Below are positions 1 to 30,527 of a stretch of DNA of 35,160 nucleotides, piece after piece. The stretch covers positions 1 to 35,160 of the forward strand of contig JAEEJM010000021.1 in the NCBI GenBank assembly GCA_016281895.1, written 5' to 3'. The notes below the pieces were generated by a model, which had not been told where the DNA came from, did no database searches, and worked only from the letters and a program-made list of their open reading frames with translations. The stretch is from Clostridiales bacterium. Its GTDB lineage: Bacteria; Bacillota; Clostridia; Oscillospirales; CAG-272. Position 1 is the stretch's first letter. Each line of letters starts with the position of its first letter. The position numbers and the translations under genes are program-made.

Positions 1-100
1 CCCAAGTAAAACAAGAGGTTTTCTCCTTTTTGATTCTTTCCAGTTTTGCAGATCATTCATTGCGTATCGTTTCATATTCATCACCGTCCTTTGCTACGAT

Positions 101-129
101 ATTATAGCCTTCACGGTGTGTATTGTCAA
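101..129 (-). promoter_or_regulatory. SigA-type promoter firing leftward out of the window
   Basis: Minus strand reads TTGACA (plus 124-129), a 17-nt spacer, then TATAAT (plus 101-106). Downstream on the minus strand there is an AAGGAG (plus 23-28) and a TTG (plus 12-14). This suggests a gene starting at the extreme left edge. Confidence 0.5.
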
Positions 130-132
130 GTA

Positions 133-193
133 AAATCACGTTATTTTTAAGAAAAGCGTGATTTCAATCACGGAATTCGTTATTTTTACGTGA
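133..193. promoter_or_regulatory. Operator-like pair of inverted repeats upstream of the leftward promoter
   Basis: AAATCACG (133-140) pairs with CGTGATTT (157-164). AATCACG (166-172) pairs with CGTGA (189-193). Both units contain TTATTTTTA in the spacer. Confidence 0.3.
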
Positions 194-366
194 GACGACC
201 TCCCCAAAAGTTACAAGCCGATAACTGTCTTTTATATATCTGATCTTTCCCGTTATTCTCTCCGGACATTCCCGGTTTTCGTGATATTGTGTTGCTGCCG
301 GCGGGAGACCGCGGCGGAATACATATAAGTGAGGGAAGGCTTATTCTCATAATCCGCCAACGCCCG

Positions 367-412
367 CATAGACCGTTCCGCCCGGGCGGACGCCCGGGCG
401 GAACGGTCTATG
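367..412 (-). terminator. Long perfect hairpin just downstream of the lipoprotein gene
   Basis: catagaccgttccgcccgggcg (367-388) is perfectly complementary to 391-412, giving a 22-bp stem. It starts 3 nt after the stop codon at 415-417. There is no clear U-tract. Confidence 0.55.
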
Positions 413-414
413 AA

Positions 415-1515
415 TCAATCGAGCACGTCCGGTTTCGGGTGCTGCCACTCGTCGCCGGGATATCTTTCTTTGTAATTGAATGATGCGACATCCTCTTTTT
501 GGGAAAGATCATACCTGCCGTTTTCGTCCGGAGCTCCGTAGACTTCTTTTAACAAATAAGCTCTCAAAAGGAACCCGCCGTACAAATTAAGCTTATACAT
601 GTCATAAAAGAGAAAAAAGCCGTAAGGGATCTCTTCTTGAATTTTATAATTCCGGTAGTACGTATGATAAACCATACAGTCATCGAACAGGAAGCGGAAT
701 TCAATTGGAGTTATCTCATCAAAGTCATCATATCTTATAATCTTTTTTTGGTATTCCCGCTGCTTCTCCGTGCGATCCCCCGTTAATCTCAGTTCCAGAG
801 TCACACAGTGATGAGAAGACTCATGCTTGTATTTGGCGGGGTCCGGGTTGTTAAGTCCTCGGTAGGATTGCGATAAAGAATCTCCAAAATATACCTTGAA
901 TTCTTCCAGCCTGATCACCGCCTCCGGATCTCCCGGAGCAACGGAGCCTTGGACGGCGTCTTTTTCCCCCTTATCATCTGCACCGGGGTATACAAAGATA
1001 ATTTCTTCAGTCAGACTCGTCCATCCTTCCGGAGCTGGAAGAAACAAAGAATCGTCAAGCTCGAGCTCCAGGTATCTGATCGTCAGGCGGTTGATGTCGT
1101 CATGGACCTGCATCATGTCCAGTCTGTTCATGTTGTAAAAGCGCCTGTTCAGGAATTCTTCGTTCGGACTGATTCCCAGCTCCCGGCTGACCTCACCGCG
1201 GTTCCTGTAGTCAGCCTCGACCCTGTCCTGAAGTTCCAGCAGATAGTCCGCGTCCCAGCTGTCTCTCTTCGCCTGAACGGGAGGCTCCGTCTGCTCGCCC
1301 GTGTCCGGTCCTCCCGTACCGGTGTCCTGTTCTCCCGTGACCTGGACAGTGCCGGTGTCAGCCGGATCGGAAGTCGCAGACGTTGTGCCTGTCCCGTTCG
1401 TGCCGCGGCCGTCAGCTGTGGTTTCGCCCGGAGCGGTACTGTTGCAACCCGAGAAGACGGAGAAGATCATTATCAAAACTAACGTCAGCGATATATAATA
1501 CTTAACTTTTTTCAT
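415..1515 (-). CDS. Lipoprotein of unknown function (366 aa)
   Basis: N-terminus MKKVKYYISLTLVLIMIFSVFSGC is a signal peptide plus lipobox. It is followed by a T/G/D/P-rich low-complexity linker and a Y/F/D-rich globular part with no motif I recognise. Confidence 0.7.
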   Translation of the reverse strand: MKKVKYYISLTLVLIMIFSVFSGCNSTAPGETTADGRGTNGTGTTSATSDPADTGTVQVTGEQDTGTGGPDTGEQTEPPVQAKRDSWDADYLLELQDRVEADYRNRGEVSRELGISPNEEFLNRRFYNMNRLDMMQVHDDINRLTIRYLELELDDSLFLPAPEGWTSLTEEIIFVYPGADDKGEKDAVQGSVAPGDPEAVIRLEEFKVYFGDSLSQSYRGLNNPDPAKYKHESSHHCVTLELRLTGDRTEKQREYQKKIIRYDDFDEITPIEFRFLFDDCMVYHTYYRNYKIQEEIPYGFFLFYDMYKLNLYGGFLLRAYLLKEVYGAPDENGRYDLSQKEDVASFNYKERYPGDEWQHPKPDVLD

Positions 1516-1585
1516 AATCAGCCGGACCTTTCACATATGAGTTCGATCGGTTGTTTCATAATCCTTTTTGTCGGCAGTGCTGTTT

Positions 1586-4051
1586 TTATGATATCTGGAC
1601 CGAGTATTGCCTGTAAAAATCGACTACAGTCTGATTGGGTGAATAGATCTTAAAATAGTACAGATTGTTTGCCGTGAACTGATAAGAAACACTTCCTGAT
1701 CCGTTGCTCACAGTGCATGTCGACACGACCGTATCCGACGAGTCTCTAATCTCGAGCACGAGCGGGAAGATCTTGGGCTGATTATTCGATGAATTCAATG
1801 TGTTAATGGTTATTGTTCTGTACCCTGTCGTTTTATAATTCAAAGAATAATAATCGATGTCCCCCTTGAAATCGATTTTGCCGGTAAAGGATGCCGCGCT
1901 CAAATGCTTTGAATTGTTCGTATTGCTTCCGGCTCCGTCCAGTGTGGAAAACGGATTCCCCGGAGTATCTCTTAAAAAGCTGTCTCCCGTGATATATGTA
2001 TCTAGAGCGGCAGGGATTCCCACATAATAAAACGAGTAGTCAAAACCGTCTTGCAGAGAATATGGGGGTTCAACGATATGGTCAAGAATAGTCTCATTAG
2101 TTAAAGTGATGCTAGGAGTGCAACTACAATTACATGTTGCAGCAGAAGCTCCGGGTTTGTGCGACCATGAATCATCCTCATTCTGTATGTAAAAATGAAA
2201 ACCAAATTTAGTCGCAATTAGAAGAATCAGCCTTCTGTCGGCGAATTCTGTCGCACTTGGAATTTGTGATGCGGTTGAATACTTGACCGCGCCGTAATAC
2301 TCGACTCCCAGTGTTTCGCAGTCCAGTTCAATAAACTCAAGCAACTGCGGAACTCGATAAGAATCGGAATCATGTTCATACAAAACTGAACTATAATAGT
2401 GCTCCAAGTTGTTGTTGTTCTGTAATTGCCCATTATAGTAGATAATGCTATATCCATCAGCTGGTTGAGGTATAATGCTTTTGTCCCAGATTTCCCCAGG
2501 AAGATGAAAATTTGGCTGCTCCAACTCACATTCTAGGAGGAAGTTAAGCCGCATAGCATATCCATAACAGTTACAACTGTATTGCAGGCTGGTCGTGTCG
2601 GAGTAGCATGCCAGATCATTGGTCGAGACCAGGTACCTGTTGTTGTATATGACTGTCAGACTAGGTTTGTATGATGCCCTGTTGTATGAGGCAAACGTCT
2701 TTCTGTAATATGTATTGCCCGTTTCAAATGAATCAGAAGCCTTAAAGACTAGACCCTTTGCGGCTTCCCCGGCGGACCCTGCCCAACTCCTTACAGTGTC
2801 GGTAATGTTAAAGCGATACCGGTGATTAGCTCCGCTTCCGGATTGATGCCCGTATCCGTAACTTACTTCTCGCTGGTCAAGCAGCTGCCCGACAAACGAT
2901 GAGCCGAGAGAACTCCAGGACGGATTCCCGGACTCCTGCCAAGAGTTTCCGGTATATCTGTGGCAGTAAACTGTAAGAGGCGTCTGATCGCAGATTACGT
3001 CCCTCAGTTCAACATATGCCAGAGCAATGCATTCCGGATCAAGATGGAGAGAGGTTACGGTTGAATCAAAAGTTGGAAACCTCATGAGGGTCCTGCATAT
3101 GCCGTAACTTGAATGAAGGCCGGCAAACAATGAGCCGGATGAGCCCGACGATGATGTGTTGCTGTATACCGTTACGTCTTCTATGGCTCCTGCATCGGAA
3201 GGATCATTGTACTGTATATTGATCGACGGGTCTATTACGACAGGGTATGACGTTGTTTCGGCAGTCAGATAATCCACAGGTACGGTTATAGTTACCGTAT
3301 ACTTCTGCTCAGGAATGATCTCCTCTACCGAAATCGAACCGACACGGCTTTCAGAGCCGTCAAGAGAATAAACCAGGATGTCATCAATGTTTCCGACGCA
3401 TTGACCCGACAAGGTCTCCAGCAGTACGTCTTCTTCCGCACATGTTATGACGAGACCGTTCGTAATGATTTCAAAGGAAAACGTGGAGATCCCGGTGTAC
3501 TCGCTTAATATGATATTTTCTTTTACCCCGGAATGCGAGATGCCGTATTCATATGATACTGAACCGTTCCCCGAGTAAACAACGCTTTTCAGATCCTCAG
3601 AAAGAACGCCCGCGATTTCACCGGGAACGTTGCCTGGAATAACGGAAACGGATGTGTCGTTGAATGAGATCGAATAGCCTTCATCAAGGAACGATCCGAA
3701 GCAGATATGCATTGGATGACTCGATTCTCTGAATCCTTCCTGCGTTTTTTCTATCCTCAGGGAGATATCTCTAATATTACCGTCAGAATCGAGATACTTC
3801 ACAGGATACCCGAACGATCTCAGAACAAATGATCCCGATACAGTCCTGAAGATCAATGAACTCATGTCAGGCTCAAGTCCGTACATGCGTTCGGTATATC
3901 CCGCGGATTCAAATTCCTCTTCGGAGATCACCTCGTTCAACCACTCGCGGTCATCTGGCTTTGACGATGCGAAACCTCCCATAGGCAGAAAAAGCGAAAG
4001 CAATAAGGAAACGTTTATCAGTATGGCCATAAACTTTTTTGCTGTTTTCAT
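1586..4051 (-). CDS. Secreted multidomain protein (821 aa) with a C-terminal PPC-type domain
   Basis: I chose the ATG at 4049-4051 (MKTAKKFMAILINVSLLLSLFLPMGGFASS, a signal peptide) because it follows AAAGGA. The ORF-track start at 4117 is a TTG. The C-terminus (GDIDYYSLNY...YYFKIYS) resembles a bacterial pre-peptidase C-terminal domain. A central SCNCYGYA ... FHFY..DDSWSHKPG stretch looks like a Cys/His hydrolase signature, tentatively. Confidence 0.75.
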   Translation of the reverse strand: MKTAKKFMAILINVSLLLSLFLPMGGFASSKPDDREWLNEVISEEEFESAGYTERMYGLEPDMSSLIFRTVSGSFVLRSFGYPVKYLDSDGNIRDISLRIEKTQEGFRESSHPMHICFGSFLDEGYSISFNDTSVSVIPGNVPGEIAGVLSEDLKSVVYSGNGSVSYEYGISHSGVKENIILSEYTGISTFSFEIITNGLVITCAEEDVLLETLSGQCVGNIDDILVYSLDGSESRVGSISVEEIIPEQKYTVTITVPVDYLTAETTSYPVVIDPSINIQYNDPSDAGAIEDVTVYSNTSSSGSSGSLFAGLHSSYGICRTLMRFPTFDSTVTSLHLDPECIALAYVELRDVICDQTPLTVYCHRYTGNSWQESGNPSWSSLGSSFVGQLLDQREVSYGYGHQSGSGANHRYRFNITDTVRSWAGSAGEAAKGLVFKASDSFETGNTYYRKTFASYNRASYKPSLTVIYNNRYLVSTNDLACYSDTTSLQYSCNCYGYAMRLNFLLECELEQPNFHLPGEIWDKSIIPQPADGYSIIYYNGQLQNNNNLEHYYSSVLYEHDSDSYRVPQLLEFIELDCETLGVEYYGAVKYSTASQIPSATEFADRRLILLIATKFGFHFYIQNEDDSWSHKPGASAATCNCSCTPSITLTNETILDHIVEPPYSLQDGFDYSFYYVGIPAALDTYITGDSFLRDTPGNPFSTLDGAGSNTNNSKHLSAASFTGKIDFKGDIDYYSLNYKTTGYRTITINTLNSSNNQPKIFPLVLEIRDSSDTVVSTCTVSNGSGSVSYQFTANNLYYFKIYSPNQTVVDFYRQYSVQIS

Positions 4052-4181
4052 TCTGACAAATCCTTTCTTTGTTTTTTTCGGCAGTATGCAGTCGGAGTCG
4101 GACTTCTGAACGAGCAATGGAAAAACGAATTGACTGCAGGATAGTCCGTTTAGATTATCCCGATGATCATCTCCGCCCTAT

Positions 4182-4268: not shown

Positions 4269-4314
4269 GACGGTTCGCCCCCGGCGCCGTTAACGGCGCC
4301 GGGGGCGAACCGTC
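4269..4314 (-). terminator. Perfect 23-bp-arm palindrome downstream of the ABC operon
   Basis: gacggttcgcccccggcgccgtt (4269-4291) is perfectly complementary to aacggcgccgggggcgaaccgtc (4292-4314). It lies 27 nt past the ATPase stop codon and at the GC-content transition. Confidence 0.55.
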
Positions 4315-4340: not shown

Positions 4341-5129
4341 CTACCTTTCGAGCATGATCCTGTCGACGGCCATCTCCCTGCCGGCGGCCTCGCGGAACCG
4401 CTCGGTCAGGTCAGCGACGGTGAGGGACGCGCGCTCGTCGCCGGCCGCGTCGTAGATGACGCGGCCGCGGTCCATCATTATTGTCCGGTTGCCCAGATCC
4501 AGCGCGTCGCGCATGTTGTGGGTGATCATGAGGCAGGTCAGGCTGTTCTCGGAGATCATCCGCCTCGTGATATCCAGCACCTTCTCGGCGGTGGCGGGGT
4601 CCAGGGCGGCCGTGTGCTCGTCGAGCAGAAGCAGCTTCGGCGGGTTGAACGTCGCCATCATAAGGGTGAGAGCCTGGCGCTGGCCGCCGGAGAGCGAGCC
4701 CACCGGGCTGCGCAAACGGTCCTCGAGCCCCATGCCGAGGCGCGAGAGCCGCTCGCGGAACAGCTCCCTGTCCTGTCTGCGGATGGCGGAGAACCAGCCT
4801 CCGAGGCCGGCCGCAAGGGCCATGTTCTCCTCGATGGTCATGCCGGGAGCGGTGCCCTTCATAGGATCCTGGAACAGGCGGCCGATCTGCCTCGCGCGGA
4901 CGTGCGGCGGGACGGCCGTTATATCGCTTCCGGCAAGCACTATCGTTCCGCTGTCGGGCTCGGCCGTGCCGCAGATGACATTGAGCAGGGTCGATTTGCC
5001 GGCGCCGTTGCTGCCTATGACGGTGACGAAATCGCCCGCCGGCAGATGGAGCGTCACCCTGTCAAGCGCCAGAGCGCAGTCGGGGGTGCCACGGTTGAAA
5101 GTCACGCTTACATCGTTGACGTACAGCAT
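4341..5129 (-). CDS. ABC transporter ATP-binding protein
   Basis: Walker A GSNGAGKST, signature LSGGQRQ and Walker B LLLLDEHTAALD are present. The start codon lies 1 nt after the permease stop. Confidence 0.93.
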   Translation of the reverse strand: MLYVNDVSVTFNRGTPDCALALDRVTLHLPAGDFVTVIGSNGAGKSTLLNVICGTAEPDSGTIVLAGSDITAVPPHVRARQIGRLFQDPMKGTAPGMTIEENMALAAGLGGWFSAIRRQDRELFRERLSRLGMGLEDRLRSPVGSLSGGQRQALTLMMATFNPPKLLLLDEHTAALDPATAEKVLDITRRMISENSLTCLMITHNMRDALDLGNRTIMMDRGRVIYDAAGDERASLTVADLTERFREAAGREMAVDRIMLER

Positions 5130-5130
5130 C

Positions 5131-6060
5131 TTAAGCCTGCCTTCCGGAGCGGCGCGAGAACCGCTTTCTTATAGAAGGATACACTGTCTTGAGGTAAGGC
5201 AGGAAGATGGCAAGCACGACTATGACCGAGGAGATCAGCTTCAGCATGAACGCGGGCATGTTGAAACGGAGGGCGACGGCGTAAACGATCCTGAATATGA
5301 CCGCGCCCAGCACGCAGCCGGCCGCCCTCCACGGGATGCGGCCGCGCGGTATGAAGACCCCGCCTATAAGCAGCGAGGCCAGGGCGATGGTCACCACGCC
5401 GGAGCCTATGTCCACGGTGACCGACCTGTTCATCTGCGAGAGCAGACAGCCGGAAAGGGCTGTGAACGAATTGGCGATACACAGCCCTATTATCGTTGTT
5501 GCCGAGGGGTCGATGGACGACGAGCGGACCATGTCGGGGTTGTTTCCCGTCGCCCGGACGGCCATGCCGAGGCGGGTGCGCAGGAACAGCGACATGAACA
5601 GCACCGTAAGGCAGGCCGCCGCGGTAAGCACCACGAGTTTGTACTGCCCTCCGAGGAAGCTGCCCTCCAGGAACGCCCGGCACCTGGTGAATACGGTCTC
5701 GCAGCGGTTGAGGTTGAGAAGCGACGCTCCCCCCATGACCGCCATGTTGACCGAATACAGACCGGTGTTCACTATAATGCCCGACAGCAGGCTGTCGACG
5801 CCCATCTTCGTCTGCAGCAGGGCCGTCACGAGGCCGGAGGCCATGCCGGCGCCCATGGCCGCCAGGACGGACAGCCACGGGTGGCCTGACAGGGCCACCA
5901 CGGCCCCGACGGCGGCACCGAGGGTGAAGCAGCCGTCGGTGGACAGGTCGCAGACGTTCAGCATCTTATAGCTCAGAAACAGCGCCAGAACGGTCACCGA
6001 AAGCGCAAGGCCGTTCTCGAGCGCGGTCTGAAGCAGGGTCAGAACGCTAGACAGATTCAT
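5131..6060 (-). CDS. ABC transporter permease
   Basis: 309-aa polytopic hydrophobic protein located between the binding-protein and ATPase genes. Confidence 0.85.
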   Translation of the reverse strand: MNLSSVLTLLQTALENGLALSVTVLALFLSYKMLNVCDLSTDGCFTLGAAVGAVVALSGHPWLSVLAAMGAGMASGLVTALLQTKMGVDSLLSGIIVNTGLYSVNMAVMGGASLLNLNRCETVFTRCRAFLEGSFLGGQYKLVVLTAAACLTVLFMSLFLRTRLGMAVRATGNNPDMVRSSSIDPSATTIIGLCIANSFTALSGCLLSQMNRSVTVDIGSGVVTIALASLLIGGVFIPRGRIPWRAAGCVLGAVIFRIVYAVALRFNMPAFMLKLISSVIVVLAIFLPYLKTVYPSIRKRFSRRSGRQA

Positions 6061-6077
6061 AATGACATTCCCTCCGG

Positions 6078-6110
6078 CCGGACCGCGGCGCCTGGGCCGC
6101 CGCGGTCCGG
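6078..6110 (-). promoter_or_regulatory. Intercistronic GC hairpin between the binding-protein and permease genes
   Basis: ccggaccgcggcg (6078-6090) pairs with cgccgcggtccgg (6098-6110), giving a 13-bp stem. This placement is typical of hairpins that stabilise the upstream binding-protein mRNA segment. Confidence 0.4.
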
Positions 6111-6129
6111 GATGCCGGTGATCCCGTGA

Positions 6130-7155
6130 TTATTTATTGAGGTCCTCGAAGCTGTCGGCGGTGGTTATCTTCTCGACCTTGGTGCAGTAAGGCGCGAAGA
6201 CCTTGCTGATCTCGTCGAAGCTGATGCCGAGCTTTGCGCAGACGTCGGTGTTGACGGTGGCCGTGCCGTTGTCGAAGGTCTTCACGGAGACGTTGCCCGG
6301 GTCCTTCTTGTTGATGAGGATGTCGGCGATCATGTCGGCGGTAGCGCGGCCGAGATTGGCGTAGTCGACGCCGTAGCCGAGAAACGCGCCGTTGAGGGCG
6401 AAGGAGTCGGCGCCGCAGTAGTGCGGGATCCTGGCGTCGGAGAAGATCTCATTGATGGCAAGCTCGGACTTCATTATGGTGTTGTCGGTCGGGGTGAACA
6501 CGGCCTCGACGCCCTCGGAGACGAGGGCCTGGGCGGCCAGGGTGACCTCCTCGACGGTGGTCCCGGTGCGCTCGACGACGGCGATGCTGCGGGCGGCCAG
6601 GAACTCCTTGGCGGCGGCTATCGGGGCGGTGGAGGCGTCCTGTCCGACGTCGTAGAGCAGGCCGACCTTCTTGATCTCGGGCTTTGCCGCGACGATGAGG
6701 TTCATGACGGCTCCGGTGTTGAGATAGTCGGAGGTGCCGGTGATGTTATGGCCGGGCTTCTCGAGCGAATCGACCAGCTTGGCGCCGAGGGGATCGGAGA
6801 CGGCGGCAAAGACCACGGGTATCTTGTTGTCTTCGGTGGCCGACTGCATCTGCATGGCGACCGGGGTGGCGACGCCCACCATGAGGTCGACGTTGTCGAC
6901 TATGAAGTTGGAGATGATCTGCGACAATACGGCCGCGTCGGCGTTGCAGTTCTGGAGGCTGACGGCGAAGGTCACGCCCTTTTCTTTGCCGATCTCTTCG
7001 AGGCGGTCCCGGATGTTGTCGACGATCTGGTTGAGCGAGGCGTCATCCACATAGTTGCAGATGCCGATCCTGTAGGTTCCCTTCTTTCCGGAGCAGCCGG
7101 CAAAGAGGCAGAGGAGCATGATCGCAGCGAGAGCCGCGCAAACGAGTTTTTTCAT
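6130..7155 (-). CDS. ABC substrate-binding lipoprotein (ABC_sub_bind / TrpX-like)
   Basis: I chose the start at 7153-7155 (MKKLVCAALAAIMLLCLFAGCSG, a lipobox) because it follows AAAGGA. It is the first gene after a Trp T-box leader. The family assignment is from memory of the binding-protein/permease/ATPase operons of this type. Confidence 0.8.
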   Translation of the reverse strand: MKKLVCAALAAIMLLCLFAGCSGKKGTYRIGICNYVDDASLNQIVDNIRDRLEEIGKEKGVTFAVSLQNCNADAAVLSQIISNFIVDNVDLMVGVATPVAMQMQSATEDNKIPVVFAAVSDPLGAKLVDSLEKPGHNITGTSDYLNTGAVMNLIVAAKPEIKKVGLLYDVGQDASTAPIAAAKEFLAARSIAVVERTGTTVEEVTLAAQALVSEGVEAVFTPTDNTIMKSELAINEIFSDARIPHYCGADSFALNGAFLGYGVDYANLGRATADMIADILINKKDPGNVSVKTFDNGTATVNTDVCAKLGISFDEISKVFAPYCTKVEKITTADSFEDLNK

Positions 7156-7252
7156 GGTGTGTATCCTTTCGTTTTTAAAGATTTTCAGAAACAAAGGTTT
7201 TCGGAAGCAAAGCTTTTCAGAAACAATAAGGCGTTAAAACCTTCTCAGAAAC

Positions 7253-7525
7253 AAAAAACCCGTCCCAACGAAACGCCGGGACAGGAAAGATCCTGCGGTG
7301 CCACCCTGCATGGTACTTGCGTACCCACTCACATACCCTGAGATATGTTTCTGTTGTTGTCGGAGTGCCGTCTCCGTCTCACATACTGGGCCGCAAAAGC
7401 GGCTGTTCAGCTTGCCCTCGGAAGTCCATTCGGAACCGGTCTTTCCTCCGCGATCTCACCGCCCGCGGCTCTCTGTACGAAAGGTTGCCGGACTTACTAC
7501 TCTTCCTCATCGGTTGTATTGATGC
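7253..7525 (-). promoter_or_regulatory. T-box riboswitch leader with probable tryptophan (UGG) specifier
   Basis: On the minus strand I see the stem I elements AGUAGUAA and AGAGAG...GGUGAGA. The specifier-loop context is CCGAA-UGG-A-CUUCC (UGG = plus 7426-7428). The T-box motif AGGGUGGCACCGCAG lies at plus 7293-7307. It is followed by the terminator GUCCC-loop-GGGAC plus UUUUUU (plus 7253-7285). Confidence 0.8.
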
Positions 7526-12713: not shown

Positions 12714-12730
12714 GTTTCCATCCGGCGCGC

Positions 12731-12826
12731 GGCGATACCTTTCCGTAAGACGCCCCTGTGACGGGCGGCGATACATTTCCGTAAAAAACCCCGGTGACGG
12801 GCGGCGACGCCGTTCCGCAAGCCCGG
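12731..12826 (+). repeat. 36-bp tandem repeat, about 2.6 units
   Basis: Unit 1 is ggcgatacctttccgtaagacgcccctgtgacgggc (12731-12766). Unit 2 is ggcgatacatttccgtaaaaaaccccggtgacgggc (12767-12802), matching at 31 of 36 positions. A partial third unit follows. Each unit is TTCCGT plus a short GC hairpin. Confidence 0.8.
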
Positions 12827-12847
12827 CTCCCGGCGCCCGCCGGGACT

Positions 12848-12892
12848 ACAACAGGCCCCGCGCCGCTTCTGCAGCGGCGCGGGGCCTGTTGT
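12848..12892. terminator. Bidirectional terminator between convergent genes
   Basis: A 19-bp perfect stem: acaacaggccccgcgccgc (12848-12866), a 7-nt loop, then gcggcgcggggcctgttgt (12874-12892). Flanking sequence is A/T-containing. Confidence 0.7.
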
Positions 12893-12909
12893 ATTATCTG
12901 CTGCGGGGC

Positions 12910-14436
12910 TCAGTTGCCCTCGACGGCCTTGTAAGAGGTCTCGATAAGAGTCACATAGTCGTTGAACATGCGCAGAGTGCTCTGGATCGGGCGCTTCTGC
13001 GATGCGGCCGCGGACGCCGCGGACGAGCCGCTGAACACGGCCGATATGATGGTGTCGACCGGGTTGAATATGGTATAGAGGTCGGAGATGTAATAGCCTA
13101 TGGTGTCCTTGATGGTGTCGAGCATCTCGGCGGTCTCGGCGTCGCTGGCGCGCTTGGTCTTCATGGTGAGCTCGTAGTAGGCCTCCATGGTGGTCGTGGA
13201 GGAGACGTACCCCCAGTAGTCCATGACGGCCGCCACGCGCTTCTTATCGACCTGGACCGAGTTCGGTATGCAGAACAGGGCGGAGTTGTTGTCGATCTTC
13301 TCGACGTACTCCTCCTGGTCGGAGTTGAACTTCGGGTTCATGACGATGCCGAAGCCGCGGGTCATGCCGACAAGGTCGCTGGAGGAGTCCATCGTGGTCT
13401 GGGTAAACAGGAAGTGGTCCTGAGCGAACAGGGCGCGGCCGCGGGCGAAGCTGTTCGGGAAGTCGCCTTCGATCTGGCCGAGGGTGTTGGCGTCGGAGTA
13501 TGTGATGCAGCTCTCGGGATCGTTCAGCAGGCTGTTGAGCTTCTCGGCGATCAGGTCGAGCCTGTCGATGTAGCCCTCCTCGGCGACGCATATGACCGGT
13601 TTGCCGTCGGCGTCCCTGCCGACCCACGGGATGCCGCAGCCGGTGACCATGAAGTTGCGGTTGGCCGAGGGCTCGGCAAGCATTCCGTAAGTGCCCAGGG
13701 TGCCTTCGGCGGCGTCGTTCTTCACGCTCCTGGCGAGCAGCAGGAAGTTGTCGAGCGTCCACTCGTTATCCTTGACGAACTGGTAGGGGCTCTTGAGGTT
13801 GTAGTCCTCGAGCACGCCCTTGCTGAAGAAGAACGCGCGGCAGGCCGCCACGTTGGCGACCGACACGTCGTTGGGCATTATGAAGACCCTGCCGCCCATG
13901 GTATAGGCCTTCAGAGCGTTGGCGTCCCACCATTTGGACGTCAGGTCGACGTTCTCCAGCGAATAGAAGTCATAGAGCAGGCCGTCCGTGGCGCTGGAGG
14001 AAAGGGTGTTGCGCTGGCAGATCATGATGTCGTAATCGACCTGCTCGCCGGCAATGTCCGTCTTGAGGGTCTTCTGGGGCGATTCCACCTCGCGGAACAC
14101 GAGGTTCACGCGGTACTTCTCCTCGACCATCCGGTTGCGTGAGGTCGACGCCTCGCTGACGATGTCCGTCCCCTCTTCGGTCGTTACGTAGCGGACCTTG
14201 TAGCTGCCGACGGTGTGGCTCCTCATGTAGACCGTGAAGTCCTCTCCGCCGTAGTCGGCGTCCACGAACTGCTTTTCGGTCTGCGCGGGTTCGCCGCTCC
14301 CGTCGCCGCCGGACTGGACGGCCGGTCTCTCCCCTGTCCCGCTGTCCGTACCGGTATCGGTGTTGCCGCACGCGCCGAGCAGCCCCGCGGCAAGGACGGC
14401 CGCGAGGATCAGCAGGGCTGTGATCGTTTTTTTCAT
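12910..14436 (-). CDS. Extracellular solute-binding lipoprotein (family-1-like, 508 aa), paralog 1
   Basis: Signal peptide plus lipobox (LLGACGN), with AAGGAG upstream. The region KWWDANALKAYTMGGRVFIMPNDVSV...NEWTLDNF resembles large sugar-type ABC binding proteins. Confidence 0.7.
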   Translation of the reverse strand: MKKTITALLILAAVLAAGLLGACGNTDTGTDSGTGERPAVQSGGDGSGEPAQTEKQFVDADYGGEDFTVYMRSHTVGSYKVRYVTTEEGTDIVSEASTSRNRMVEEKYRVNLVFREVESPQKTLKTDIAGEQVDYDIMICQRNTLSSSATDGLLYDFYSLENVDLTSKWWDANALKAYTMGGRVFIMPNDVSVANVAACRAFFFSKGVLEDYNLKSPYQFVKDNEWTLDNFLLLARSVKNDAAEGTLGTYGMLAEPSANRNFMVTGCGIPWVGRDADGKPVICVAEEGYIDRLDLIAEKLNSLLNDPESCITYSDANTLGQIEGDFPNSFARGRALFAQDHFLFTQTTMDSSSDLVGMTRGFGIVMNPKFNSDQEEYVEKIDNNSALFCIPNSVQVDKKRVAAVMDYWGYVSSTTTMEAYYELTMKTKRASDAETAEMLDTIKDTIGYYISDLYTIFNPVDTIISAVFSGSSAASAAASQKRPIQSTLRMFNDYVTLIETSYKAVEGN

Positions 14437-14465
14437 TCTGACATCTCCTTTTCAGAATTATTCCA

Positions 14466-14591
14466 GGCCGCCCCGCAGGGCGGCGGCTTCATTGCCGCGA
14501 AGCGGAACTTCATTAGCGCCCGCAGGGCGCGTCTTCATTTGCCGGCCAGCAGGCCGGCAGCTTCATTGCCGCCGCAGGCGGCACTTCATTT
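14466..14591 (-). repeat. Array of five GC hairpins, each preceded (as read on the minus strand) by AATGAAG
   Basis: CTTCATT on the plus strand starts at 14487, 14508, 14533, 14561 and 14584, giving spacings of 21, 25, 28 and 23 nt. Each interval holds a 4-8 bp GC stem with a 3-6 nt loop. The array fills the gap between the two binding-protein genes. Confidence 0.85.
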
Positions 14592-14593
14592 CT

Positions 14594-16123
14594 TCAGTTA
14601 CCCTCTATGGCCTTGTAGGAGGTCTTGAGATACTCGACCTGCTTGTCGTACTGGTTCATCGTGTATGTGATCATACGGGCCTGCTGGGCCGCGGCCGTGG
14701 CCGCCGACGAACCGCCGAACGTCTGGGATATTATGAAATCGACGCTGCCGAAGATGGTGAAAAAGTCCGAGATGTAGTATCCCACGGTGGCCTTGATCGT
14801 GTCGAGCATCTCGGCCGTCTCGGCGTCCGTGGCGCGCTTGAGCTTGAGGGTGAGGTCGTAATACGCCTCCATGGTGGTCCCGTGGGACTCCCAGCCCCAG
14901 TAGTCCATTATGACCGCCACGCGTTTCTTGTCCACCTGGACGGAATTCGGGATGCAGAAGATGGCGGAGTTGTTGTCGATCTTCTCCACGTACTCCTTCT
15001 GGTCGGAGTCGTACTTCGGATTCATGACGACGCCCACACCCTTCGGCATCTCGGTGAACTGTTTCGAGTCGCTGAGCGTGGCGTGCGTGAACAGCATGTG
15101 CCCCTGTGCGAACAGCGCTCTGCCGCGGTCGAACTCGTGGGCGAACGATCCCTCTATGACCCCCAGGGCGTTGGCCTCGCTGAAGGTTATGGCGCACTCC
15201 CTGTCCTTGAAGAGGGAGTTCAGCTTCTCGGCTATGAGGTCGAGCTTCGCGAGGTTGCCCTCCTCGGCGACCGAGATGACCGGCCTGCCTTCGCTGTCCC
15301 TTCCGACCCACGGGATGCCGCAGCCGGTGACCATGAAGTTCTGGTTGGCCGCCGTCTCGACCAGCATGCCGTAGGTGCCGAGCTCGCCGGCCGGCGAGTC
15401 GTTTCTGACGCTCCTGGCCAGGGCGATGAAGTTGTCCAGGGTCCACTGATTCTCCTTCACGTACTGGTAGGGGCTCGTGAGGTTGTAGTCCTCGATTATC
15501 GACTTGTTGAAGAAGAATATGCGGACTGCCGAGATGTTGGCTATGGAGACGTCGTTCGGCATGATGAACACCATGCCGTTGATGTCGTAGGCCTCCCTGG
15601 CGTTCGCGTCCCACCAGACGGTGTCAAGGTCCACGCCCTCCAGGCGGTTGAAGTCATAGAGCAGGCCCTTGGTCATAACCTCGGAGAGGCCGTTCCTGGC
15701 GGCGATCATTATATCGTAGTCGACCTGCTCGCCGGCGATGTCCGAAGCGAGCGTCTTCTGCGGCGATGCGGTCTCGCGGAACTCGAGCTTTACGTTGTAT
15801 TTGTCCTCGACCCTGTGGTTCCTGGTCGTCGAGGCCTCGCTGACGATGTCGGTGCCCTCGTCGGAGGTCACGTACAGCACCTTGTAGCTCTCGGTGTCGT
15901 GGCTGCGCATGTAGACGGTGAACTTTTCCCCTCCGTAGTTCGCCTCCCTGAACTTCGGGCCGGTGTCCTCCTGATCCCCGGACTGATCCTCCGCGGGACC
16001 TGCGGACTCTCCCGGGGGGACGGTGGTGATACCGCCGGCCTCGCCGCTCCCGCAGGATGCAAGAAAAGCAAACAGAACGAGGATCGAAAGAGCCAGAGCG
16101 GCGGCAGCTGTTTTTCTGATCAT
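14594..16123 (-). CDS. Extracellular solute-binding lipoprotein (509 aa), paralog 2
   Basis: Lipobox FLASCGSG. It is collinear with and clearly homologous to the 12910-14436 product along its full length. Confidence 0.7.
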   Translation of the reverse strand: MIRKTAAAALALSILVLFAFLASCGSGEAGGITTVPPGESAGPAEDQSGDQEDTGPKFREANYGGEKFTVYMRSHDTESYKVLYVTSDEGTDIVSEASTTRNHRVEDKYNVKLEFRETASPQKTLASDIAGEQVDYDIMIAARNGLSEVMTKGLLYDFNRLEGVDLDTVWWDANAREAYDINGMVFIMPNDVSIANISAVRIFFFNKSIIEDYNLTSPYQYVKENQWTLDNFIALARSVRNDSPAGELGTYGMLVETAANQNFMVTGCGIPWVGRDSEGRPVISVAEEGNLAKLDLIAEKLNSLFKDRECAITFSEANALGVIEGSFAHEFDRGRALFAQGHMLFTHATLSDSKQFTEMPKGVGVVMNPKYDSDQKEYVEKIDNNSAIFCIPNSVQVDKKRVAVIMDYWGWESHGTTMEAYYDLTLKLKRATDAETAEMLDTIKATVGYYISDFFTIFGSVDFIISQTFGGSSAATAAAQQARMITYTMNQYDKQVEYLKTSYKAIEGN

Positions 16124-17662: not shown

Positions 17663-17704
17663 GAACGGAGGCCCCGGCGGACGGATCCGCCGGGGCCTCC
17701 GTTC
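17663..17704 (-). terminator. 18-bp GC hairpin downstream of P2
   Basis: gaacggaggccccggcgg (17663-17680) pairs perfectly with ccgccggggcctccgttc (17687-17704). There is no U-tract. Confidence 0.5.
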
Positions 17705-17751: not shown

Positions 17752-18816
17752 TCAGCTTCTTTTTCTGCGGAAGACGACCGCGCCGGCCGCGGCTACCGCG
17801 AGAACGGGGAGCAGGGCAACGGAGTTCTTGCAGCCCTTCTTCTCCTCCTTGGGGGCCTCGGTGGCGGGAGCCTGGGTGGCCGGAGCCTGAGTCTCGGGGG
17901 CCTTGGTCTCGGGGGCCTTGGTCTCGGGAGCCTGGGTCTCGGGGGCCTTGGTCTCGGGGGCCTGGGTCTCGGACTCGGCGGCCAGCTTGTGGTTGGTTCC
18001 GTATACGTCGAACTCGGTGATCCTGGCGATGTAGTAGAAGGCGTTGGAGGTGAACGTGGTGGTTATGCCTTCACGCCTGGGGTTGACGCAGCCGTAGGCG
18101 ATGTTGGTGACGCCGGTGTACTCCTTGTTGAAGTCGGCGACGATATACCTGTACCAGTAGTACTCGGTATCGGTGGCCTTCTCGACATGGGTCCAGTCGC
18201 CGCCCTTGTCAACGGTGAACGCCGACATCTTGTCGACGACAGTTTTGCCCTCGGCGTCGGTGGTCCAGGTGAGTCTGGTGGACTCCCATGCCACGGTCCA
18301 GGTCTGGCCGTTGTCCTGGGAGACCAGGATGTCGAAAGCGGCGTCGGCCTGCCACTCGGCTACGGGCTTGTCACCGACGGAATAGTCGTTCTCGTTGCTC
18401 CACCAGATGGCGAAGCTGCGGACGTCGCAGTCGAGGCCTTCGAAATCCCACTCGTAGAAGTACTTCTTGACGGTGCCGTCGGTCATGGTGAACTCGCAGG
18501 TGCGGATGTCGTTCTTCTCGTCGTTGGTGGCGACTTCGACGGCGGAGGTGTCGCCGTCCTTCTTCTGCCAGGACTTGTTGATGTACTGGGCGGAGCCTTC
18601 CAGAGGCCTGCAGACGATGCCGTCGGTGAGGACGCCGCTTCCGTCGGGGCTGAACTCCTGGGTCGGAGCGTTCACAACGGCGATCTCGCCGTCAAGCACG
18701 TCGACCTTCCCGCCGAGATCAGCGTGGATGTAACCGTCTTCCGCCAGTGCGAAAGCAGGGACAGCCATGGAGAGCGCCAGCACGGCGATAAGAGCGAGAT
18801 AGAGTGCTTTTTTCAT
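17752..18816 (-). CDS. Surface protein P2: discoidin-like ectodomain, ETQAP/ETKAP linker, KKGC-TM-RRKR tail
   Basis: Signal peptide MKKALYLALIAVLALSMAVPAFA with AAGGAG upstream. It has FDILVSQDNGQTWTVAWESTRL and ARITEFDVYG. The tail is KKGCKNSVALLPVLAVAAAGAVVFRRKRS. Confidence 0.8.
   Translation of the reverse strand: MKKALYLALIAVLALSMAVPAFALAEDGYIHADLGGKVDVLDGEIAVVNAPTQEFSPDGSGVLTDGIVCRPLEGSAQYINKSWQKKDGDTSAVEVATNDEKNDIRTCEFTMTDGTVKKYFYEWDFEGLDCDVRSFAIWWSNENDYSVGDKPVAEWQADAAFDILVSQDNGQTWTVAWESTRLTWTTDAEGKTVVDKMSAFTVDKGGDWTHVEKATDTEYYWYRYIVADFNKEYTGVTNIAYGCVNPRREGITTTFTSNAFYYIARITEFDVYGTNHKLAAESETQAPETKAPETQAPETKAPETKAPETQAPATQAPATEAPKEEKKGCKNSVALLPVLAVAAAGAVVFRRKRS
17851..17970 (-). repeat. 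15-nt tandem repeat (8 units) encoding the P2 Pro/Thr/Glu linker
   Basis: Units of the form gggggccttggtctc run in register from 17851 and encode (E/A)T(Q/K)AP. Confidence 0.85.
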
Positions 18817-19040: not shown

Positions 19041-20093
19041 TTATTTCCTTTTTCTGCGGAAGACGGCCGCGCCGGCCGCGGCTGCCGCGAGAACGGGAAG
19101 CAGGGCGGCAAAGCTGCCGCAGCCCTTCTTCTCCTCCTTGGGGGCCTCGGTGGCCGGAGCCTGGGTGGCGGGAGCCTGGGTCTCGTGGGCCTGGGTGTCC
19201 GGAGCCTGGGTCCCGGGGGCCTTGGTCTCGGGAGCCTGGGTATCCGGAGCCTGGGTCTCGGGGGCCTGGGTCTCGGGCTCGGTCTCGACGGCCTTATGGT
19301 TGGTGCCGTACACGTCGAACTCGGTTATCCTGGCGATGTAGTAGAAGGGGTTGTTTGTGAAGACGGGCGTCGCGCTCTCGCGCCTGGCGTTGACGCAGCC
19401 GTAGGCGATGTTGGTGACTCCGGTGTACTCCTTGTTGAAGTCGGCGCTGATGTACCTGTACCAGTAGTACTCGGTGTCGGTGGCCTTCTCGACGTGGGTC
19501 CAGTCGCCGCCCTGTTCGACTGTGAACGCGGACATCTTGTCGACGGTCTTGTTGCCCTCGGCGTCGGTGGTCCAGGTGAGTCTCGTGGACTCCCATGCAA
19601 CGGACCAGGTCTGGCCGCCGTCCTGGGAGACCAGGATGTCGAAAGCGGCGTCGGCCTGCCATACGGCGACCACGGATTCGGGGACGGAGTAATCCTTCTC
19701 GTTGCTCCACCAGATGGAGAAGCTGCTGACGTCGCAGTCAAGGCCTTCGAAGTCCCACTCGTAGTAGTACTTCTTGACGGTGCCGTCTGTCATGGTGAAC
19801 TCGCAGGTGGCGTTGCCGGCGTTCTCGGCCTCGGTGGCCTCGGCGACGCTGCCGATCCAGCTCTTGTTGAAGTACATGGAGCTTTCAAGGGGCTTGCAGA
19901 TGATGCCGTCGGTGAGTCTGTCGTCAGAGTCCGGAGCGAAGTCTTTGTTGGGAGCGTTCAGCACGGCGATCTCGCCGTCGAGGACGTCGACCTTCCCGCC
20001 AAGTTCCGGGTAGACATAGTCGAACGCGGCGGCCGGGACGGCCAGAGACAGAGCAAGCAGCACGGCAAAGGTGAGTAACAGTGCTTTTTTCAT
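19041..20093 (-). CDS. Surface protein P3, a close paralog of P2
   Basis: Long stretches are identical to P2 (TCEFTMTDGTVKKY.YEWDFEGLDCDV.SF.IWWSNE.DYSV; GGDWTHVEKATDTEYYWYRYI.ADFNKEYTGVTNIAYGCVN). The tail is KKGCGSFAALLPVLAAAAAGAAVFRRKRK. Confidence 0.8.
   Translation of the reverse strand: MKKALLLTFAVLLALSLAVPAAAFDYVYPELGGKVDVLDGEIAVLNAPNKDFAPDSDDRLTDGIICKPLESSMYFNKSWIGSVAEATEAENAGNATCEFTMTDGTVKKYYYEWDFEGLDCDVSSFSIWWSNEKDYSVPESVVAVWQADAAFDILVSQDGGQTWSVAWESTRLTWTTDAEGNKTVDKMSAFTVEQGGDWTHVEKATDTEYYWYRYISADFNKEYTGVTNIAYGCVNARRESATPVFTNNPFYYIARITEFDVYGTNHKAVETEPETQAPETQAPDTQAPETKAPGTQAPDTQAHETQAPATQAPATEAPKEEKKGCGSFAALLPVLAAAAAGAAVFRRKRK
19140..19274 (-). repeat. 15-nt tandem repeat (9 units) encoding the P3 linker
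   Basis: Same repeat family as 17851-17970 but with one more unit and different variants. Confidence 0.85.
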
Positions 20094-23887: not shown

Positions 23888-23975
23888 CCGCGGCTGCGCG
23901 CGGCGATGAAGTTGCCGCTGCGCGGCAAATGAAGTCGCGCGCGGCGCGCGCAAATGAAGTGCCGCCTGCGGCGGG
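23888..23975 (+). repeat. AATGAAG-hairpin array (four hairpins, three heptamers) between divergent promoters
   Basis: (A)ATGAAG starts at 23906, 23928 and 23953 on the plus strand and alternates with GC hairpins. The last unit, AATGAAGTGCCGCCTGCGGCGG, is identical over 22 nt to a unit of the 14466-14591 array read on its minus strand. Confidence 0.85.
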
Positions 23976-23987
23976 CTCCGATTTTTA

Positions 23988-24016
23988 TTGACTTACCCGC
24001 AGAACGGTTATATAAT
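23988..24016 (+). promoter_or_regulatory. Promoter of the ATP synthase operon
   Basis: TTGACT (23988-23993), a 17-nt spacer, then TATAAT (24011-24016). Confidence 0.65.
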
Positions 24017-30478: not shown

Positions 30479-30527
30479 CACCGGGCCGGAAAGAGCGGCG
30501 CTCTTTCCGGCCCGGTGAGTTTTTTTA
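30479..30527 (+). terminator. Rho-independent terminator of the atp operon
   Basis: A 17-bp stem: caccgggccggaaagag (30479-30495), loop cggcg, then ctctttccggcccggtg (30501-30517). It is followed by agTTTTTTT. Confidence 0.85.

Follow-up and report, generated by a model that had tools for sequence, protein, structure and literature searches.

The DNA examined here, called the window throughout, is the stretch of 35,160 nucleotides (nt) formed by positions 1 to 35,160 (forward strand) of contig JAEEJM010000021.1 from a Clostridiales bacterium (NCBI GenBank assembly GCA_016281895.1; GTDB lineage Bacteria, Bacillota, Clostridia, Oscillospirales, CAG-272). Between two paralogous binding-protein genes on its minus strand lies a row of five short units, each consisting of the heptamer AATGAAG (the head) and a perfect GC-rich hairpin. 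This row is probably a five-copy head-to-tail array of a lineage-restricted, multi-copy and dispersed palindromic repeat of rumen and gut Clostridia. Its most fitting description is that of a variant of the repetitive extragenic palindromic (REP) kind, that is, a heptamer-tagged head-to-tail hairpin repeat family. Units and multi-unit blocks would be copied between unrelated loci at the DNA level, a copying mechanism that we infer, and arrays would grow and change quickly. Insertions would persist only where they are harmless, typically right behind a stop codon, where the TGA of the head can end the reading frame.

Much work has been done on REP-type repeats in Proteobacteria, but very little in the Clostridia that dominate gut and rumen communities. 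The present family is unlike classical REPs in its long head-to-tail arrays, its strict polarity past stop codons and its maintenance across very different GC contents. A 7-nt tag combined with freely varying perfect palindromes and with such behaviour points to an as yet undescribed machinery for recognition. The arrays also have practical importance, as they break metagenome assemblies and are mistakable for regulatory RNAs or for arrays resembling CRISPR. Furthermore, they put strong hairpins inside operons and may thereby alter mRNA stability and gene ratios.

The two arrays of the window

The gap between the two binding-protein genes measures 157 bp (14437-14593). On the minus strand it comprises, after the TGA stop codon of the upstream gene (14596-14594), the trinucleotide AGA, the five units and a final 30 nt that lead to the ATG of the downstream gene (14436). 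A preliminary description, made from the letters alone, had stated that five units fill this gap on the minus strand, and a reading of the sequence, shuffles and a permuted-heptamer control all bear this out. The described build of a unit (AATGAAG plus a GC stem of 4-8 bp), the period of 21-28 nt and the distance of about 30 nt between the last hairpin and the next start codon were likewise found to be correct. The first unit had been placed 4 nt past the upstream stop codon and actually begins after 3 nt (AGA).

The heads start at 14590, 14567, 14539, 14514 and 14493 (minus strand), giving periods of 23, 28, 25 and 21 nt, and all units of the window array are direct repeats in one orientation. 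The stems of units 1 to 5 are 7, 8, 6, 4 and 7 bp long, with loops of 3-4 nt and a gap of 0-2 nt between head and stem. Unit 1 (14567-14590) has its head at 14584-14590 and the hairpin TGCCGCC-tgc-GGCGGCA at 14567-14583, and lies within a 22-mer that is common to a second array, described below. Unit 2 (14540-14567) carries its head at 14561-14567 and the hairpin TGCCGGCC-tgct-GGCCGGCA at 14540-14559, while unit 3 (14516-14539) has a head at 14533-14539 and the hairpin GCGCCC-tgc-GGGCGC at 14516-14530. The short hairpin CCGC-ttc-GCGG (14495-14505) belongs to unit 4 (14495-14514; head 14508-14514). Unit 5 (14467-14493; head 14487-14493) ends the array with GCCGCCC-tgcg-GGGCGGC at 14467-14484.

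The units are non-random. AATGAAG occurs 13 times in the window against an expectation of 2.47 ± 1.58, and none of 100 shuffles reached 13. Six exact heads in the window are directly trailed by a perfect hairpin with a stem of 5 bp or more, whereas a control with 60 permuted heptamers gave 0.07 such cases on average and never more than 1. Tandem Repeats Finder reported 14473-14591 (period 25, 4.8 copies) and 23893-23970 (period 24, 3.2 copies). The predicted fold of the sense RNA has an energy of -75.4 kcal/mol (z = -3.75), and both DNA strands are predicted to fold as well (z = -5.9 and -5.2).

The second array (23888-23974) lies on the plus strand, opposite to the first, and consists of a hairpin CCGCG..CGCGG (23888-23903) followed by three units of head and hairpin, with two exact heads and one GATGAAG. 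The latter (23905-23911) precedes TTGCCGC-tgc-GCGGCAA, and the two AATGAAG heads at 23928-23934 and 23953-23959 precede CGCGCG-cgg-CGCGCG and CCGCC-tgc-GGCGG, respectively. The recurrence of the element at 23888-23975, including an identical 22-mer, had been noted beforehand and was confirmed; the sequence AATGAAGTGCCGCCTGCGGCGG is present at 14569-14590 (minus strand) and at 23953-23974 (plus strand). The second array sits between divergent genes, with a phosphodiester glycosidase gene on the minus strand and the atp operon on the plus strand, and its end lies 12 nt upstream of the -35 element of the predicted atp promoter TTGACT-17-TATAAT (23988-24016, plus strand; 11 of 12 consensus matches). 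This array is most likely outside both flanking mRNAs, as judged from the sequence; for the atp mRNA this follows from the position of the promoter, which starts downstream of it. An element built for intercistronic RNA would not be expected at such a site.

The genes that flank the first array are both on the minus strand and both encode lipoprotein signal peptides; a Pfam scan gave a weak SBP_bac_1 match in one of them. The upstream gene (14594-16123) codes for a lipoprotein solute-binding protein of 509 amino acids (aa), and the downstream gene (12910-14436) for a 65%-identical paralog of 508 aa. A Shine-Dalgarno sequence AAGGAG is located at 14445-14450 (minus strand), within the 30 nt before the ATG. 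The downstream gene may also have its own extended -10 element, since the candidate TGGAATAAT (14457-14465, minus strand) was read by eye directly 3' of the last hairpin; a consensus promoter scan did not report it as a -10. Further downstream, behind the second binding-protein gene, a 36-nt tandem repeat of 2.6 copies was observed at 12729-12821.

A dispersed, polar repeat family absent from relatives

Species-representative genomes were scanned for three heads spaced 12-24 nt apart, with results drawn from the matches listed, and metagenome contigs were scanned with a stricter pattern; noise and duplicates were removed before analysis. Among the genome matches listed, about 12 were true look-alikes, and the majority were unrelated, such as coding NEELQS heptad repeats and plain microsatellites. 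These look-alikes among the matches listed were all from metagenome-assembled genomes (MAGs) of rumen and gut Clostridia, with the exception of L115, a MAG labelled Kiritimatiellae with variant heads. The hosts include Oscillospiraceae SIG561, Acutalibacteraceae (two MAGs), Ruminococcaceae RUG11941, Clostridiales RUG041 and several 'Clostridia RGIG' MAGs, one MAG having two loci. The metagenome scan added about 30 further arrays, mainly from rumen assemblies. A count of AATGAAG hairpins beyond the two window loci had been set beforehand as a test. The analysed set reached at least 45 arrays in 34 loci from many genomes, all 45 of them intergenic, which supports the first impression of conserved-head palindromes clustered in intergenic DNA.

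The units of this set follow one plan. A perfect stem of at least 5 bp was present in 78% of 105 unique inter-head spacers versus 10.6% of shuffled ones, and these spacers gave 52 distinct stem sequences and a modal period of 24-25 nt. The commonest loops on the head strand were TGC, TTC, GGA, TTGC and TGCG, and up to 10 units stood in tandem. In genomes of 35-43% GC the head is unchanged and the stems are AT-rich, for instance TTATGTCC-ttcg-GGACATAA. Variant heads comprise GATGAAG, AATGAGG, AATGACG, AATTAAG, GTGAAGT and GTGAAAT. Perfect hairpins numbered 76 and imperfect ones 5, with a single G.T pair; such near-perfect stems fit young or DNA-maintained palindromes, an argument to which little weight is given. 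Wobble pairs were tried as a test of the folding strand and proved uninformative because almost all stems are perfect. Most triloops on the CTTCATT strand are of the GNA type, and GNA loops are unusually stable in single-stranded DNA, which is a hint only in the present case. The array ends were mixed (a head opens 28 arrays and a hairpin 17; a head-like motif closes 19 and is missing from the end of 26) and favoured neither a target-site-duplication model nor a 5'-tag model.

Similar sequences of other kinds were also seen. Bacteroidales and other gut MAGs contain heptamer microsatellites with no hairpins, (AATGAAG/AGTGAAG/AATGTAG)n, some of which form inverted pairs separated by a few tens to hundreds of nt (L013:779-931, L015:974-1114, L022:2457-2766, and also L007, L037, L040, L100, L103 and L107). 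Moreover, long-stem terminators adjoining arrays in L257 (minus strand, ~1650-1720) and L280 (minus strand, ~5900-5960) have AATGAA...TTTCAT flanks and not plain A/T tracts. Judging by this resemblance, the head may be related to terminator flanks in genomes of the L257 and L280 type.

The arrays are dispersed over unrelated surroundings. The genes that precede them are unrelated to one another (infB, prfA, pfk, an ABC/FtsX transporter gene, EamA, DUF1015 and DUF6320). At six loci the arrays lie directly downstream of transfer RNA (tRNA) genes (L016, L077, L106, L112, L120) or a transfer-messenger RNA (tmRNA) gene (L109:5419-5759) and their terminators. The ends of tRNA and tmRNA genes are classical landing sites of integrating elements. 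Arrays upstream of promoters were found at the second window locus and in L016. L239 and L347 share multi-unit blocks of 60-200 nt at 85-95% identity between unrelated flanks. A small set of unit types also recurs, including the TGCCGCC-tgc, TGCCGGCC-tgc and GCCGCCC-tgcg units of the window. Thus, the array is not specific to the binding-protein operon, and it was not designed for it, because units also occur upstream of the atp promoter and behind unrelated genes.

Copy number was approached through metagenome depth. In two gut metagenomes holding the organism, the k-mer depth of unit 1 was 69-80 against 4.7-5.3 for the neighbouring gene, and in a third it was about 9 against 3-4; unit 1 therefore stands at 10-15 times the flanking gene in two of the three. 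In these metagenomes unit 1 is joined to many different unique flanks, and contigs break inside the array. Other samples show variant unit content at the window's own array locus. The source genome has two arrays in about 39.5 kb, and a 4.3-kb extension of the source contig held no further ones. No array was present at homologous binding-protein loci of 59-61% protein identity, nor at three atp (atpB) loci of 67-72% protein identity (58 kb in total). In the light of these results it is hardly credible that the array arose by chance or merely locally, e.g. by replication slippage of a GC-rich low-complexity stretch, with no family behind it. One local duplication could in principle give the two window arrays, but the permuted-heptamer and shuffle controls exclude chance, the same head recurs in all the arrays counted above, and unit 1 is over-represented in metagenome depth.

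Searches of viral and plasmid sequences returned nothing comparable. No true array was found among the first 116 pattern matches in viral contigs, and BLAST against plasmid and phage collections gave no match to the arrays, so that a phage or plasmid origin was rejected. In Rfam 15, no family matched the window at its gathering score, 14380-14660 stayed empty even at E ≤ 1, and the second locus gave chance-level matches only. The heptamer itself was looked for in the literature, where it turned up just in primers and in sequences with no relation to the array. As a separate observation, L088 holds a composite of about 150 nt (three AATGAAG units plus inverted CTTCATT units) that is duplicated about 1 kb apart (5930-6140 and 6870-7008). 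The two copies flank an open reading frame (ORF) of 204 aa, and the region may hold repeated small-gene cassettes. The ORF was considered as a transposase and rejected, as its translation, judged by inspection with no Pfam scan made, is not transposase-like.

The orientation of the arrays is strictly tied to stop codons. With genes called by an ORF heuristic based on GC content at third codon positions, 14 of 14 arrays within 50 nt past a stop codon read head-first on the coding strand of the gene that ends there. No array of opposite orientation abuts a stop codon, the nearest being 57 nt away. In each of the five convergent gene pairs, the array sits against the gene whose sense orientation it shares, and blocks outside the window flip at most once, from [AATGAAG-hairpin]n to [hairpin-CTTCATT]n. 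Several loci have the stop codon inside the first head, as GGAATGAAG, or as GTAATGAAG giving TAA; elsewhere it lies in a degenerate head (TGAGG, TGAGT or AATGTAG). By analogy with such loci, AACTGAAGA in the window (14591-14598, minus strand), which contains the TGA of the upstream gene at 14594-14596, may be read as a degenerate head. The tag of GTAG REPs likewise supplies the TAG stop of the preceding ORF (Di Nocera et al., PMC3733652).

Two readings fit this polarity. Insertion may be seeded at head-like sequences and survive where the TGA of the head ends the frame; an insertion in reverse orientation would extend the protein because CTTCATT has no stop codon. Alternatively, selection may act at the level of RNA or translation. 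Three further ideas were dropped. A chain of mini-ORFs, with an ATG and a TGA in each head and the last ORF ending as ATGA on the next start codon, is taken as a coincidence because the frames agree at chance level (1 in 3) and no ribosome-binding site is present. A structure like the selenocysteine insertion sequence, with UGA plus hairpin, was rejected, as its loops would be of another type, the frame changes between units and some arrays lie outside genes. GC skew was tried for assigning the replication strand and tracks gene orientation only.

Some points weigh against the explanation by a dispersed repeat copied at the DNA level. The strict sense polarity past stop codons could equally reflect selection for a function in RNA or translation. 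The number of copies per genome is an extrapolation from metagenome depth and from the two arrays in about 39.5 kb. Ordinary gene-end hairpins in the window are likewise perfect over 18-21 bp, which weakens perfect stems as an argument for a DNA-level process. Neither a transposase nor another enzyme that could do the copying was identified; a crude HUH...Y pattern for the REP-associated tyrosine transposase (RAYT/Y1), a weak test, found no candidate in 277 kb of array loci. Finally, public RNA runs yielded no usable coverage of the junction between the paralogs: RNA-labelled ones gave few low-depth contigs, true metatranscriptomes cover gene bodies only, and two RNA-labelled runs appear to be the same data as DNA runs.

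Possible effects on RNA

The preliminary description had named protection of mRNA 3' ends, uncoupled expression of the two paralogs and an array for protein binding as possible roles. The first array is probably within the two-gene transcript, in which its five stable hairpins would fold. Sense transcription should read through into the downstream gene, because no U-tract follows the hairpins and a terminator scan of the sense (minus) strand over 14437-14593 found no terminator-like site. In Escherichia coli, REPs behind malE protect the upstream mRNA. By this analogy, the array may be a barrier to 3'-to-5' exonucleases and a processing platform, and the mRNA of the upstream binding protein would outlive the downstream one, as with malE REPs and cip-cel stem-loops. 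Additionally, ribosomes reportedly stall in E. coli when a REP lies no more than 15 nt from a stop codon (a 2015 finding of Liang and Deutscher). The first stem of the window array begins 10-11 nt past the upstream stop codon and may thus be within the range where E. coli REPs disturb termination.

A stronger claim would make the array a purpose-built cis-regulatory RNA, either a protein platform on single-stranded AAUGAAG or a cassette of the RNase Y type that sets the ratio of the binding proteins. We consider this very unlikely. The array does lie in sense, fills the intercistronic gap and offers five copies of the motif predicted to be single-stranded between hairpins. Precedent for stem-loop-directed processing exists in clostridial operons, notably in the cip-cel operon of Ruminiclostridium cellulolyticum, where intergenic stem-loops set transcript stoichiometry and processing has been demonstrated experimentally (PMC10311766). 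However, the units, including the identical 22-mer, also occur upstream of the atp promoter on the other strand, and they stand behind unrelated housekeeping genes. Homologous loci do without arrays, and Rfam yields nothing even with the threshold relaxed to E ≤ 1. The stems, too, form perfect palindromes with no wobble pairs.

On the opposite strand, each hairpin precedes CTTCATTT, and for this reason the array could damp antisense transcription by weak termination. A lenient terminator scan flagged hairpin plus CTTCATTT on the plus strand only. It is nevertheless unlikely that the units exist as opposite-strand terminators or insulators (hairpin then CUUCAUUU) that keep antisense or convergent transcription from running into the 3' end of the abutting gene. 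In favour of that view, the scan flags units solely on the CTTCATT strand at both window loci, the array faces the incoming transcript of the other gene in five of five convergent pairs, and genuine bidirectional terminators with AATGAA...TTTCAT flanks are present in related loci. Yet CUUCAUU is a poor U-tract, and a terminator does not need a heptamer conserved across genomes of 35-65% GC. Moreover, five units stand in a row between co-directional paralogs with no obvious antisense source, and both orientations lie side by side in L016, L077 and L278.

The comparison with intrinsic bidirectional terminators leads to a similar picture. They share with the units a GC hairpin beside a T-rich segment on one strand, and some arrays end in or adjoin true terminators. 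The units differ in having no sense U-tract, an interrupted CTTCATT(T) on the opposite strand, a conserved linker and up to 10 copies in tandem. The stem-loops of cip-cel and malE resemble the window array as GC-rich hairpins in an intercistronic gap that could protect upstream 3' and downstream 5' ends (PMC10311766). Those are single, locus-specific and experimentally mapped, whereas the AATGAAG units are dispersed, have a conserved linker and are known from sequence.

PF05635 genes, known systems and other features of the window

Genes of the PF05635 family (23S rRNA intervening-sequence protein, an Avd-like four-helix bundle) adjoin arrays at four loci with E values of 1e-24 to 1e-28: L275 (1390-1860, minus strand), L016 (1556-1912, minus strand), L109 (6064-6504, plus strand) and L261 (284-640, plus strand). 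Truncated copies are found in L112 and L352. L275 and its orthologs L379-L390 (e.g. L379, L380, L383 and L389) have the order [AATGAAG/AATGACG/AATTAAG-hairpin]n, PF05635 gene, [hairpin-CTTCATT]n, and the unit content of these brackets differs between strains. An in-house PF05635 hidden Markov model (HMM), built from the homologs, found 4 genes in 0.28 Mb of array loci versus 1 in about 2.2 Mb of other loci. Most close PF05635 homologs are on contigs of only 0.5-1 kb, a size that assembly breaks in repeated flanks would produce. For a large family of proteins whose function is unknown, this repeated pairing is a concrete starting point for tests.

It is conceivable, with a minor but real probability, that the arrays stem from a mobile PF05635 cassette bracketed by inverted arrays, be it as its satellites, as its flanks or as scars left by it, and that solo arrays like that of the window are its non-autonomous derivatives or remnants, in a relationship like that of REPs to RAYT genes. 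Such a relationship would account for the genes directly beside arrays at four loci and the truncated copies at two, the inverted brackets around the L275-type gene and its orthologs, the HMM density and the short contigs of close homologs, which suggest assembly breaks in repeated flanks. Inverted plain heptamer brackets in other lineages (L370, L117) point the same way, and insertion of the family inside operons is documented (PMC3936711). On the other side, only about 6 of 45 arrays adjoin a PF05635 gene, and these reduce to 2-4 independent loci. The control loci came from other taxa. The orientation of array and gene is not constant (L016 differs from L261), and arrays and gene may simply accumulate in the insertion-tolerant spots beside tRNA and tmRNA genes. 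Furthermore, hmmsearch found no PF05635 ORF in the window or its 4-kb extension (L360), where the arrays stand alone. The papers found on PF05635 describe no link with hairpin arrays.

A more specific form of this idea, which we regard as doubtful, treats the AATGAAG units as non-autonomous partners of an unrecognised mobile cassette whose cargo is the PF05635 gene between inverted arrays of the same units. The PF05635 protein, or an enzyme recruited by it, would recognise the single-stranded heptamer beside a hairpin and drive copying. With every insertion the target heptamer would be made anew, and this would account for both the head-to-tail arrays and the seeding at head-like stop codons. 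If true, a large orphan protein family would gain a function, and Clostridia and other gut phyla would have a REP/RAYT-like system. The likeness to known PF05635 cassettes lies in small genes between or inside operons with inverted-repeat brackets, and several loci are bracketed by exactly the head and hairpin units. The window array differs in its single orientation and in having no such gene nearby. Two brackets of another make were observed as well, both of inverted plain heptamer arrays with no hairpins around a PF05635 gene. One consists of AGAGTGA inside the purH-purD operon (L370:2460-2900), and the other is of the GGAGTTCA type in a Bacteroidaceae MAG (L117:4180-4700).

Returning to the dispersed REP-kind repeat as the preferred explanation, the preliminary description had likened the array to REP elements and to bacterial interspersed mosaic elements (BIMEs), and this likeness holds in part. 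The architecture, dispersal, strain variability, lineage restriction and stop donation agree with it; membership in the REP or BIME families is not supported, owing to the tag and the orientation. REPs of Proteobacteria are often situated behind binding-protein genes in transporter operons (malE-malF). As in REPs, BIMEs and REPINs (REP doublets forming hairpins), the palindrome is tagged at one end, and the elements are extragenic, probably multi-copy, clustered, strain-variable and lineage-restricted, with a tag that supplies a stop codon (PMC3733652). REPs typically number more than 100 per genome, and they are bound by IHF, DNA gyrase or Pol I and stabilise the mRNA upstream of them. The units of 21-28 nt are at the short end of the palindrome length of about 20-40 nt expected of REPs, and their stems are perfect rather than imperfect.

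The tag is AATGAAG, with GAAG as the four stem-proximal bases, instead of the GT[AG]G (or CGTC) of REPs, and GTAG turns up solely at L259 and L280, with a TAG stop in place of the head. Runs are head-to-tail, or blocks that flip once, and not the alternating doublets of BIMEs. Unlike in REPs, the stems of 4-8 bp are not conserved in sequence (52 stems). The survey of GTAG and CGTC REPs lists no families in Clostridia and has no mention of Firmicutes (PMC3733652). The RAYT gene that the preliminary description proposed to look for, which in REP systems mobilises the palindromes and usually has them on both sides, was not found in the array loci or the window by weak motif and Pfam tests; the Pfam scans, themselves a weak test, covered 24 window genes and the array-adjoining genes and gave no Y1_Tnp.

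CRISPR arrays and ToxI repeats resemble the units as short tandem repeats containing palindromes, and both identities were rejected. The constant part of the array is 7 nt, the variable part is a palindrome of 14-21 nt, and there are no unique spacers and no cas gene in the window; no toxN-like gene is nearby, and the period of 21-28 nt compares with 34-45 for ToxI and about 60-70 for CRISPR, whose identical repeats measure 23-47 nt and alternate with unique spacers of about the same size. The CRISPR repeat 3' handles ATTGAAG/ATTGAAAC are reminiscent of AATGAAG, a resemblance to be taken as a lead only.

Several other features of the window were recorded. No tRNA or tmRNA was found in it. Five long perfect palindromes with stems of 18-21 bp, all different in sequence, are located at gene ends (367-412, 4269-4314, 12847-12893, 17663-17704 and 30479-30517), and they are probably bidirectional terminators of unusual perfection. 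The stretch 1-4100 is a low-GC block (46.5% versus 60-66% elsewhere) with two large minus-strand ORFs (415-1515 and 1586-4117) that have no Pfam match; from its composition, this block may be acquired DNA. A T-box leader (RF00230) at 7274-7519 (minus strand) scored 60.7 bits (E 8.8e-13) and thus fell short of the family's gathering score of 93. It lies upstream of ABC_sub_bind, permease and ATPase transporter genes (4341-7194) and is 88% identical to a leader in the relative L358. Additionally, repeats of 15 and 45 nt (17851-17972 and 19140-19277) are present in the paralogous genes 17752-18816 and 19041-20093, whose DNA is about 81% identical.

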